NCBI GenBank assembly: GCA_002772645.1
Contig: PFDK01000003.1
Coordinates: 1 to 40,492 of the forward strand
DNA: 40,492 nucleotides
Direction: 5' to 3'
DNA from: Candidatus Pacebacteria bacterium CG10_big_fil_rev_8_21_14_0_10_56_10
GTDB lineage: Bacteria; Patescibacteriota; Microgenomatia; UBA1400; PJMF01
Part shown: positions 37,617-40,492 of the stretch, piece after piece
How the letters are laid out: each line of letters starts with the position of its first letter
Numbering within the stretch: the stretch's first letter is position 1
The notes under the pieces: model-generated
What the model saw: the letters and a program-made list of their open reading frames with translations, nothing else
What the model was told of the DNA's origin: nothing
Database searches by the model: none
Position numbers and translations under genes: made by a program

Positions 37617-38135
37617 TCACTGATCAAAGATTGAGGGTTTTCGTTTTTTTGGAGGTCTATCAGTCCAATTAGGCCAGTTTCCGTTCGGCCCAAGCGACAA
37701 AATCTCCACCAAGGTCAATACCGAATCAATAAGCTCCGCCTGTTCTTGCTCTAAAAACTGCTTGCCAACCCTGTTTTCCAAGCTTTCAATCCTCCGGCCC
37801 AAATCCTCACTGTGACCCGTATTGTCACCGGAAACCGTCTTCACTCGGAGCCGTAAATTATTCAGAAATATAAGCAGGATTAGGCCAATTTCGTATTGAT
37901 ACTTTTGTTGATACTCTTGCCCATCTTTTTTTGTTTCGGCATTCTCCATAGCCACACCGGATGCGGAGTCTATGAATTCACTCTGCCGAACTTCAGTGCT
38001 GTTGACTTCTTTAATTAGCTCGACCGTCTCTTTAAGTAGCTGTTGTTGCTCGAGGGTTAAGAGAGTCCGGAACGCTTGATCAGCGGTTAACCGCGCCTCG
38101 GGTGGCAGCTGGGAGGGGTAAGGCGTCTCGGACAT
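37617..38135 (-). CDS. Hypothetical helical protein
   Basis: 172-aa ORF, E/Q/K/L-rich, visibly lower GC; no motif recognised. Confidence 0.6.
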   Translation of the reverse strand: MSETPYPSQLPPEARLTADQAFRTLLTLEQQQLLKETVELIKEVNSTEVRQSEFIDSASGVAMENAETKKDGQEYQQKYQYEIGLILLIFLNNLRLRVKTVSGDNTGHSEDLGRRIESLENRVGKQFLEQEQAELIDSVLTLVEILSLGPNGNWPNWTDRPPKKRKPSIFDQ

Positions 38136-38399: not shown

Positions 38400-40265
38400 A
38401 TGTCCAGAACACTGGCAAACAACACAGTCGATCAAATTGGTCAGCAGGTCACCCTGGCCGGCTGGGTGCAGACCAAACGCGATCACGGCAAAATTACCTT
38501 TATTGACTTGCGTGACACCAGCGGCGTGATCCAGTGCGTCGGAGCGGGCACCATGGGCGAGCTGACAACCGAGTCGGTGGTGGAGATTGCCGGCCAGGTC
38601 AGGGAAAGGCCCGCCAAGATGGCCAACCCCAACGTGCCAACTGGCGCCATCGAGATAGAGGTGCGTTCATACCAAGTGCTCAACCCGGCTGAAGAACTAC
38701 CGATCCAAGTAGAGGGTGACGGCCGCCAGCTCGGGGAAGAGGTTCGCCTCAAGTATCGCTATCTTGACCTGCGCCGCCAGCGGCTCGGGCAGATGCTCAG
38801 ACTACGCTCGCGCTACTTTCAAGCTTTGCGCCAACAGCTCTACCAACGCCAGTTCACAGAGGTAGAGACGCCGCTGCTCACCAAGTCCACTAAAGAGGGG
38901 GCTCGCGACTTCGTGGTGCCGTCGCGCTTCCAACCAGGCAAGTTCTACGCCCTGCCCCAAAGCCCCCAGCAGTACAAACAGTTGTTAATGGCCGCCGGCG
39001 TGGAGCGCTACTTCCAGTTTGCTCGGGCAGTCCGGGACGAAGACTTGCGGGCCGACCGCGGTTTTGAGCACACCCAGCTGGACCTGGAGATGAGCTTTGT
39101 TTCTCAGCAGGAAGTGATGTCGATGGTTGAGGAAGTAGTTACGGCCGCGGTACAAGAGGTCGGCGGCCAGATTAAAGACAGCCCGTTCCCGGTGATTGAG
39201 TACGACGACGCTCTCAAGCGTTTTGGCGACGACAAGTTTGACCTGCGCTCTGAAGACGAAAAATCTCGGGGAGTGTTAGCCTTTACCTGGGTGACCAAGT
39301 TCCCGTTCTTCAAGAAAGTGGACCGCACGGACGCCGCCGAAACGGCCGATTCCAAGAGTGGCTGGACCTTCACCCACAACCCGTTCAGCCAGCCCCTGCC
39401 GGAATCCCTGGCCGATCACCTGGCCGGCCGGCGGCTGGACGGTATCGTTTCAGCTCAGTACGATCTGGTCTGCAATGGCTACGAGGTGGGCGGCGGCAGC
39501 ATTCGCGCCCATCGGCCGGAAGTACTCCGGGCTACCTTTGCCAACATGGGTTACTCGGACCGGCAGATCGAAGAGAACGTGGGCCATATGTTGACAGCTT
39601 TCAAGACTGGTACTCCGCCTCACGGAGGGATTGCGCTGGGACTCGATCGGCACGTGATGATCTTGTTGGGCGAGAGTTCTCTCAAGGAAGTGATTGCTTT
39701 CCCGATGACGTCGACCGGCCGGACGGCGGTGATGGACGCGCCCAGCGACATCTCCGACCAGCAGCTCTCTGACCTAGGCTTAGAACTGGCTGAGCGCCGC
39801 CAGTCCGCGCACGACGCGATTCTCAAAAAACTGGCCGATCACAGGGTGGCCCACCAATACCTTGAGCACCAGCCAGTGAGTACCAGCCGGGAGGCGGCTC
39901 AGCTGCGTGGCACCGCTCTGGACCAGTCGGCTAAAGCGCTGGTGCTGCAAGCCGATGGTCAGTTTTTGGTGTACGTCCTACCGGGTGACCAACGGGCAGA
40001 CCTGGAACACCTGCGCGCCGCACTGGGCGCGCGCAAAGTAGCCATGGCGTCGAAGGACTCAGTACTGGCCAAGACGGGCTTGGAAGTCGGTTCGATCCCG
40101 CCGTTTGGCTCGGTCTTGGGACTGCCTACCTATGTTGACGAGCGAGTCGCTAAGCTTGAGGAGATCGCTTTTAACGTGGCCGCCCTCGACAGATCGGCGG
40201 TCATCAAGACGGCCGATTATCTGCGGCTGGAAAGTCATGAGCTACTGCCAGCGCCCCAAACCTAA
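38400..40265 (+). CDS. aspS: Aspartate--tRNA ligase lacking the GAD insertion, fused to a C-terminal YbaK/ProX-type domain
   Basis: GWV..RDHG..FIDLRD, RLKYRYLDLRR, EGARDF, ALPQSPQ.YKQLLM, RDEDLRADR, YDLV.NG.E.GGGSIR, PPHGGIALGLDR, VIAFP; then SAKALV and GSIPPFG. Confidence 0.96.
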   Translation: MSRTLANNTVDQIGQQVTLAGWVQTKRDHGKITFIDLRDTSGVIQCVGAGTMGELTTESVVEIAGQVRERPAKMANPNVPTGAIEIEVRSYQVLNPAEELPIQVEGDGRQLGEEVRLKYRYLDLRRQRLGQMLRLRSRYFQALRQQLYQRQFTEVETPLLTKSTKEGARDFVVPSRFQPGKFYALPQSPQQYKQLLMAAGVERYFQFARAVRDEDLRADRGFEHTQLDLEMSFVSQQEVMSMVEEVVTAAVQEVGGQIKDSPFPVIEYDDALKRFGDDKFDLRSEDEKSRGVLAFTWVTKFPFFKKVDRTDAAETADSKSGWTFTHNPFSQPLPESLADHLAGRRLDGIVSAQYDLVCNGYEVGGGSIRAHRPEVLRATFANMGYSDRQIEENVGHMLTAFKTGTPPHGGIALGLDRHVMILLGESSLKEVIAFPMTSTGRTAVMDAPSDISDQQLSDLGLELAERRQSAHDAILKKLADHRVAHQYLEHQPVSTSREAAQLRGTALDQSAKALVLQADGQFLVYVLPGDQRADLEHLRAALGARKVAMASKDSVLAKTGLEVGSIPPFGSVLGLPTYVDERVAKLEEIAFNVAALDRSAVIKTADYLRLESHELLPAPQT

Positions 40266-40325: not shown

Positions 40326-40492
40326 ATGGCAGGACTGAGGCCCGACCAGTACATCAGTGTAGCGGCCGTGACGGTAGGTATGTTGTTGACGGCGGCCGAG
40401 TACCAACCTGTTACCGCTCCTCCACAACTGGAACTCAGCTTTATCGAGCCAACCGCGCTGGCGGTTCCCCGCGCAACCGCGGCCAGTATGGC
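40326..40492 (+). CDS. 5' part of a probable exported protein (truncated by the window)
   Basis: TACAAT 6 nt before ATG; open frame MAGLRPDQYISVAAVTVGMLLTAAEYQPV... to the edge. Confidence 0.5.
   Translation, partial: MAGLRPDQYISVAAVTVGMLLTAAEYQPVTAPPQLELSFIEPTALAVPRATAASM

Follow-up and report, generated by a model that had tools for sequence, protein, structure and literature searches.

An aspartyl-tRNA synthetase with a C-terminal YeaK-like deacylase domain in an ultra-small groundwater bacterium and the recurrence of this pairing

Locus and domain layout

The window considered here, the whole stretch of 40,492 nucleotides from contig PFDK01000003.1 of Candidatus Pacebacteria bacterium CG10_big_fil_rev_8_21_14_0_10_56_10, carries near its end a gene (aspS) for an aspartyl-tRNA synthetase (AspRS) whose polypeptide chain continues into a domain of the INS superfamily, named after the insertion (INS) of prolyl-tRNA synthetase (ProRS). 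The host is an ultra-small groundwater bacterium that makes AspRS and a YeaK-like deacylase domain as one protein. A preliminary description of this DNA had proposed an AspRS fused to a YbaK/ProX-type deacylase domain, and the in-frame fusion to a domain of this fold is real, with the Pfam families PF00152 and PF04073 lying in one open reading frame (ORF) that is free of internal stops. The motifs quoted at the time (VIAFPMT, DAPS, EHQPVSTSREAA, SAKALV, and TGLEVGSIPPFG) are all present in the translation. The features of the locus are as follows.

38400..40265, plus strand: whole gene, AspRS plus C-terminal YeaK-like deacylase domain; a single ORF of 621 residues plus stop codon
38448..38681, plus strand: OB-fold anticodon-binding domain, residues 17–94 (Pfam tRNA_anti-codon PF01336, E 1.6e-13)
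38736..39710, plus strand: class II (Asp/Lys/Asn) catalytic core, residues 113–437 (Pfam tRNA-synt_2 PF00152, E 1.2e-101)
39711..39866, plus strand: end of the AspRS core and flexible linker, residues 438–489; weakly conserved, with low predicted local distance difference test (pLDDT) values
39867..40229, plus strand: predicted INS-superfamily aminoacyl-tRNA deacylase domain, YeaK/ProXp-ST1-like, residues 490–610 (Pfam tRNA_edit PF04073)
39933..39935, plus strand: codon of Lys512, the conserved catalytic-site lysine of the superfamily (role by family knowledge); invariant and aligned with the lysine of YbaK
40089..40109, plus strand: GxxxP loop G564-S-I-P-P568-F-G570, aligned with G-G-I-S-P-L-G of YbaK
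40326..40492, plus strand: next ORF, probably the N-terminus of a D-Ala-D-Ala carboxypeptidase (Peptidase_S11); open at the end of the window

The PF04073 match spans profile positions 1–123 of 123 with an E value of 7.7e-27 and 94.3 bits against a cut-off of 25.5, a profile score that puts the tRNA_edit assignment far above chance, and the same segment, 39867–40229, was recovered in a whole-genome Pfam scan. The region singled out in the preliminary description, positions 39804–40265, corresponds to residues 469–621 and the stop codon. A helix at residues 470–480, ahead of the Pfam domain, forms part of the deacylase fold.

The synthetase part passes two equivalog models of bacterial-type AspRS, NF001750 (567 bits vs. 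443) and TIGR00459 (492 vs. 374). The absence of the GAD insertion splits the NF001750 match in two, and the Pfam search found the GAD domain (PF02938) neither in this AspRS nor anywhere else in the genome. The AspRS of unfused relatives is also about 470 residues long. A full-length model resembles the solved AspRS structures 4o2d, 1c0a, and 4wj4, and AspRS chains were the only hits returned by the fold search.

The junction between the two parts is spanned by contigs of three other sequencing runs on groundwater or aquifers (39500–39906 in X2, 39525–40080 in X3, and 39608–39838 in X4), with 0 differing letters and no insertions or deletions; the DNA itself probably comes from a fourth run, X1, and that run is not counted as independent. 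A stop or frameshift at the junction, envisaged earlier, is therefore absent from these contigs, and the fusion is not an assembly artefact. The domain-architecture search suggested in the preliminary description bears this out: PF00152 and PF04073 occur together in 120 of the 120 homologue clusters listed (at least 120 exist; 55–67% identity, plus one identical fragment), PF01336 is additionally present in 117 of the 120, and the proteins are about 620 residues long. Named members of this list are called “aspartate--tRNA ligase” or “amino acid--tRNA ligase-related protein” and come from Patescibacteria groups, including Woesebacteria, Dojkabacteria, and Beckwithbacteria. Among species-representative genomes scanned with the junction region, 7 of 50 confirmed loci span both of its sides, Woesebacteria and Dojkabacteria records included. 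Six further records (L141, L146, L150, L156, L159, and L161) encode AspRS proteins 56–71% identical to that of the window under titles such as Pseudomonadales, Gammaproteobacteria, and Cyanobacteria bacterium, and are probably mislabelled bins.

Fold, conservation, and closest relatives of the C-terminal domain

Across 114 aligned fused proteins, H490, K512, G564, P567, P568, and G570 are invariant, and the lysine and the GxxxP loop are kept in 39 of 39 AspRS-linked homologues. HMMER alignments pair K512 with the lysine of the YbaK K-T-L-L motif and G564–P568 with the YbaK GGISP loop; these are the conserved lysine and GxxxP loop to which attention had been drawn in the preliminary description, and we take them to be the elements that characterise the active site throughout the INS superfamily. 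Relative to the query protein, mean identity is 0.70 in the AspRS core, 0.52 in the C-terminal domain, and 0.32 in the linker (residues 467–489), and as judged by sequence the C-terminal domain is under constraint. A domain that has lost hydrolysis and serves as a non-catalytic appendage, binding tRNA or some other partner, is very improbable. Such a role would fit the frequent loss of the domain from close relatives with no visible compensation as well as residue 594, an Ala in the query and a Gly in 97% of linked homologues, but the invariance of the lysine and the GxxxP loop in both sets of proteins is what an active enzyme should show.

In the full-length AlphaFold2 model, pLDDT falls to 54–69 over residues 431–470. 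Modelled alone, the domain attains a pLDDT of 96 and a predicted template modelling score (pTM) of 0.90, and Foldseek aligns this model with 3op6, 1vki, 2cx5, 2dxa, 1wdv, 1dbu, and 8huz at template modelling (TM) scores of 0.76–0.86. On the combined grounds of model and sequence, the C-terminal domain has a YbaK-type fold and is a member of the INS superfamily.

Within the superfamily, the affiliation of the domain was assessed with a family profile built from the window domain and 89 free-standing homologues, against which reference proteins were scored. E. coli YeaK (ProXp-ST1) ranks top among the references tried with 153 bits, followed by 3op6, the uncharacterised Legionella protein lpg1207 (125 bits, E 2.1e-35), the ProXp-x protein 2cx5 (79 bits), YbaK (70–74 bits; 69.5 for E. 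coli YbaK), ProXp-ala (63 bits), and the ProRS insertion (55 bits or less); the panel comprised these families and did not contain ProXp-ST2, ProXp-7, -8, or -9. In BLASTP, the window domain and E. coli YeaK are 39% identical over 148 residues (E 3e-28). Among the references tried, sequence comparison thus identifies E. coli YeaK/ProXp-ST1, a Ser/Thr-tRNA deacylase, as the closest characterised relative. The earlier YbaK/ProX label holds at the level of the superfamily and fails at that of the family, since YeaK scores 153 bits where E. coli YbaK scores 69.5. An identity as YbaK was rejected on the scores of TIGR00011 and NF007951 (57.8 and 61.5 bits vs. 153.25, and 30–34 vs. 243, respectively), and an identity as a ProRS insertion was rejected on the profile scores given above.

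In a domain tree of 138 columns, most forks of which are unresolved, YeaK nests inside the set of top homologues of the window domain, in another well-supported clade of 11 rows. The resolution of the domain-only tree (171 rows, 138 columns) is too low to count independent fusion events.

Recurrence and patchiness of the pairing with AspRS

In an even sample of 401 Patescibacteria genomes, homologues of the domain at E <= 1e-8 occur in 89 genomes, with 93 matches in all, 92 of which were examined with about 2.6 kb on each side (the remaining one, G096:C174, was left out). The loci fall into four classes: (i) fused to AspRS, 9 of 92; (ii) a separate gene directly downstream of the AspRS gene on the same strand, with 29–634 nucleotides separating the end of the AspRS frame from the domain start, 30 of 92; (iii) 1.0–2.2 kb downstream of the AspRS gene on the same strand, 8 of 92; and (iv) AspRS not in view within about 2.5 kb, 45 of 92. 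The last figure is an upper bound, with less than 900 nucleotides available upstream of the homologue in L016, L070, L102, L119, L120, and L136. The 39 fused or adjacent loci span 20 genome families, and the link between domain and AspRS is systematic. A further possibility raised in the preliminary description, that relatives encode two separate genes, is borne out in that a split form exists (class ii); the fusion is not refuted by it, and because the split genes are adjacent, in the order aspS then deacylase gene, the functional link is supported.

The domain is paired with three AspRS scaffolds, namely the bacterial type without GAD, the bacterial type with GAD, and the archaeal-type aspartate--tRNA(Asn) ligase; AspRS cut-offs were passed by all 10 neighbour synthetases checked and by two fused archaeal-type proteins. 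The fused form that contains GAD, 744 residues long, is represented by at least 120 clusters, the named ones of which are labelled Woesearchaeota or Nanoarchaeota (DPANN archaea). The archaeal-type fused form accounts for at least 120 further clusters, whose named rows are Patescibacteria groups bar one labelled Bathyarchaeia. For the 120 listed relatives of cluster P0169, named rows are Pacebacteria, Roizmanbacteria, Gottesmanbacteria, and Beckwithbacteria together with one Candidatus Bathyarchaeia archaeon, and a mostly Chlamydiota origin of a 602-residue fused cluster, hinted at by the protein atlas, was rejected on this basis.

The order aspS, deacylase gene, D-Ala-D-Ala carboxypeptidase gene is common to the split loci L010–L013 and the window, and this sequence arrangement suggests fusion or fission in place. 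In the window the carboxypeptidase is probably represented by the ORF at its end. Peptidase_S11 is found (E 1.6e-34) in frame 3674–4378 of L021, beyond a short run of unknown bases, and the two frames probably form one gene. The unknown bases (X in the translation) lie at about 3590–3620 of L021, that is, about 40490–40520 of contig C25, and interrupt the start of this downstream gene. In two other genomes the deacylase domain and Peptidase_S11 share one stop-free frame, L089:2493-4112 (plus strand, G001, 540 residues) and L095:1548-3074 (minus strand, G146, 509 residues), either as true fusions or as separate genes that run in the same frame; in L095 the neighbour on the upstream side is RecJ.

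The domain is an accessory and dispensable module that is fused, encoded by a separate gene after aspS, or absent, and that has been repeatedly gained or lost among close relatives. In the genome family of the window, 5 of 25 genomes, counting the present one, carry the fusion and one has a free copy; among the other 16 genomes of the order, 4 carry the fusion. A tree of the AspRS core (45 rows) intersperses fused and unfused proteins and requires 12 parsimony changes, at least three of which are forced by well-supported branches. A tblastn search for domain remnants in 26 unfused loci returned chance-level matches only, which, apart from the best (E 0.013), were placed inside aspS by their coordinates.

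Synthetases other than AspRS are rare partners. One copy, L078:2595-4574 (minus strand) in G360, is fused to a lysyl-tRNA synthetase (LysRS; NF001756, 578 bits vs. 468) with tRNA_edit at the C-terminus, in a genome whose own AspRS is unfused, and a threonyl-tRNA synthetase (ThrRS) adjoins another (L099). Beyond AspRS and these two, no synthetase was found in the 92 loci as a fusion or same-strand neighbour, and the methionyl-tRNA synthetase (MetRS) gene beside one copy (L094) lies on the opposite strand. These data bear on the idea that the domain is a general trans-editor: it would be a deacylase acting broadly on Ser/Thr-tRNAs or others, on behalf of several synthetases and not of AspRS errors in particular, its placement at aspS providing co-expression or borrowed tRNA affinity. 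The 45 loci not beside aspS, the LysRS fusion, the ThrRS neighbour, and the lack of a sequence signature parting linked from unlinked copies would be expected under this account, as would the broad tRNA specificity of YeaK/ProXp-ST1, which includes tRNA-Lys (PMC11295145, available in part). It is nevertheless unlikely: the domain is repeatedly paired with AspRS, on three unrelated scaffolds, in 39 of 92 loci and 20 genome families, partners other than AspRS are confined to the two cases above, and the ThrRS and alanyl-tRNA synthetase (AlaRS) of this genome keep editing regions of their own.

A second conserved neighbourhood is formed by scpA (SMC_ScpA) and the deacylase gene, which stand side by side in 13 of the 53 loci without a fused or adjacent aspS (among them L090, L093, L101, L102, L104, L106, and L113), with scpA downstream where checked.

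Candidate function and its alternatives

The reading somewhat favoured here, from sequence-level evidence, is that the protein is a working AspRS carrying a linker-tethered and catalytically intact YeaK-like deacylase that acts as a tethered trans-editor, with Ser/Thr-like amino acids as the foremost candidate substrates. A flexible and poorly conserved linker of about 40 residues would tether the deacylase to the C-terminus of AspRS; Lys512 and the G564–P568 loop would engage a mis-acylated tRNA at its 3′ end and hydrolyze the ester bond. The domain may re-sample tRNAs freshly released by the synthetase, a mode of tethered trans-editing as opposed to a rigid cis-editing site, and trans action is proposed because the linker is low in both conservation and model confidence and because the split-gene form is frequent. 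By analogy with YeaK, small non-cognate amino acids (Ser/Thr-like) on tRNA-Asp or tRNA-Asn rank first as the most likely substrates. Predicted docking of the core (residues 1–466) with the C-terminal domain (residues 478–621) gave a score of 0.00, which speaks neither for nor against binding.

Several observations weigh against a dedicated AspRS editor of this kind. Nearly half of the homologue loci (45 of 92) have no AspRS within about 2.5 kb and one copy is fused to LysRS, so the family is not confined to AspRS; no position carries a residue characteristic of the 39 AspRS-linked copies as against the 45 unlinked ones (at 80% in the former vs. <50% in the latter). In the family of the window, 19 of 25 genomes have neither a fused nor a free copy, with at most the ProRS insertion, and the function is therefore not essential. 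No column of the AspRS core separates 18 fused from 26 unfused relatives at a frequency difference of >=0.55, and thus nothing shows the synthetase to be more error-prone where the domain is present. The window domain and YeaK belong to different subclades and may differ in specificity, the retained editing regions of ThrRS and AlaRS tell in the same direction, and sequence alone reveals no substrate, the deacylase activity itself being predicted. AspRS is not known to mis-activate Ser or Thr.

The genome (0.95 Mb, 29 contigs, 93.8% complete) appears to make asparaginyl-tRNA indirectly. A profile search at this completeness found no asparaginyl-tRNA synthetase (AsnRS) over cut-off, whereas GatB, the only GatCAB subunit searched, is present together with tRNA-Asn (GTT, U1-A72) and tRNA-Asp (GTC, G1-C72); because AsnRS is missing from this search and GatB and tRNA-Asn are present, the AspRS is probably non-discriminating. 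The domain might then act as a checkpoint that hydrolyzes Asp-tRNA(Asn), or Asp on other G34-U35 tRNAs, that escapes GatCAB, such that Asn codons are not read as Asp. This is a shade less likely than a general trans-editor. Besides the inventory of this genome, a checkpoint would be consistent with (i) the acceptor-stem difference between tRNA-Asn and tRNA-Asp, which such a deacylase could read, acceptor-stem recognition being described for INS-superfamily relatives (PMC11295145, in part), (ii) the archaeal-type aspartate--tRNA(Asn) ligase among the domain-bearing scaffolds, and (iii) the clustering of asnS, aspS, and the deacylase gene in G267, G208, G295, G334, and G116. Against it, such hydrolysis would do away with an intermediate that is obligatory in genomes of this kind, and the presence of the domain does not track the pathway: GatB is found in 40 and AsnRS in 1 of 41 relatives, fused or not, and in the phylum sample AsnRS occurs in 13 of 89 genomes with the domain vs. 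31 of 312 without it (denominators that include G154, a genome flagged as unpublished on which no conclusion depends). Moreover, no GatCAB gene lies among 104 neighbours of unlinked copies, and the closest characterised relative acts on Ser and Thr, not Asp (PMC11295145, in part).

A substitute for D-aminoacyl-tRNA deacylase (DTD), removing D-Asp from tRNA-Asp in a lineage without DTD, is most improbable. DTD (PF02580) was found neither in this genome nor in the 24 other genomes of the family, and a distant free homologue (50 bits to PF04073; L058:1150-2348, minus strand, G432) directly follows a same-strand Asp/Glu racemase gene, both of which fit this account. Yet 20 of the 25 family genomes lacking DTD have no fusion either, and DTD is present in three fused genomes from the same order (G431, G437, and G424), on which grounds DTD replacement was rejected. 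We know of no member of the INS/YbaK fold with a role in chiral proofreading.

The preliminary description had also asked whether the ProRS of this genome lacks INS. It keeps an INS-type domain, so the fused domain is not a replacement for a missing insertion, and this candidate role was rejected as well. An INS-type match occurs in 5 of 9 fused and 13 of 32 unfused relative genomes; taken together, the presence of the domain tracks neither AsnRS nor DTD nor the ProRS insertion among relatives (nor AsnRS in the phylum sample). Eighteen of the 41 related genomes (G401–G437) have no tRNA_edit match at all, and their ProRS appears to be without an INS-type domain.

Several known proteins and fusions offer comparisons for the window domain. 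YeaK shares with the window domain the fold, the constellation of lysine and GxxxP loop, and the 39% identity noted above; it hydrolyzes Ser- and Thr-tRNAs in trans on many tRNAs, tRNA-Lys among them, and is a single-domain, free-standing protein (PMC11295145, in part), unlike the window domain, which is fused to AspRS or, in relatives, encoded right after it. Legionella pneumophila lpg1207 (3op6) is the best solved-structure match both by profile and by Foldseek (E 7e-13, TM 0.82); it is free-standing and uncharacterised, and gives no substrate hint for the window domain. The ProRS insertion and the protist ProXp-ala-ProRS fusions are alike in that an INS-superfamily deacylase is built into a class II synthetase, and in Trypanosoma brucei (T. 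brucei) ProXp-ala-ProRS the fused domain is expected to do most of its editing in trans, once the product has been rapidly released (PMC11286415, available in part). These systems differ in their partner, ProRS, in their substrate, Ala-tRNA(Pro), in the position of the domain (INS inside the ProRS core and ProXp-ala at the N-terminus, as opposed to the C-terminus of AspRS), and in their weak sequence similarity to the window family (55 bits or less for ProRS, 63 for ProXp-ala). YbaK, a Cys-tRNA(Pro) deacylase, has the same fold, lysine, and GxxxP loop, and the window domain falls below its TIGR00011 cut-off (57.8 vs. 153).

The list of synthetases with editing domains was long thought settled, without AspRS, which has been treated as needing no proofreading. 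No description or test of an AspRS with an INS-superfamily domain was found in the literature searched, the full text of which was covered in part, and the parts available of PMC4301749, PMC3367201, PMC5388404, PMC3973320, PMC11295145, and PMC11286415 do not describe one. According to the available part of a 2024 review, the INS superfamily consists, apart from the ProRS insertion, of single-domain proteins, and the ProXp-7, -8, and -9 families are uncharacterised (PMC11295145). Public domain annotation already shows this architecture, with the proteins named plain aspartate--tRNA ligase, and the novelty therefore lies in function and not in sequence discovery: a known deacylase family has a new and recurrent synthetase partner.

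If the link holds, a physiological partner would be named for an uncharacterised branch of the YeaK-like family, on the basis of fusion and gene order, which extend over three AspRS scaffolds and apparently over bacteria as well as archaea, and an AspRS error or an Asp/Asn pathway checkpoint not yet known would be implied. That the AspRS of ultra-small bacteria and archaea has a dedicated editing partner, which clears an unrecognised AspRS error or polices Asp-tRNA(Asn), is a tentative and rather doubtful proposal; policing of Asp-tRNA(Asn), if true, would constitute a hydrolytic checkpoint on tRNA-dependent amino acid biosynthesis of a kind not described before. That many tiny uncultured microbes have the two either fused or in neighbouring genes points to a proofreading step not studied so far, and the system is directly testable with one protein, one point mutant, and defined tRNAs.

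A few minor observations concern other proteins. Just upstream of aspS, on the other strand, lies an ORF of 172 residues (37617–38135, minus strand) that matches no Pfam family at E <= 0.001. Further tRNA_edit architectures (P0123, P0151, P0196, P0132, P0242, and P0270) include two or three tandem tRNA_edit domains, GmrSD_N with tRNA_edit, and WD40 with tRNA_edit, and the same protein set contains an ATP-grasp and tRNA_edit protein of 1012 residues. The LysRS of this genome (G000 contig C10, L004:1159-3417, plus strand) is 753 residues long with a C-terminal HD (phosphohydrolase) domain at residues 602–690, and LysRS-like frames of 679–728 residues occur in the relatives G408, G423, G430, and G401.

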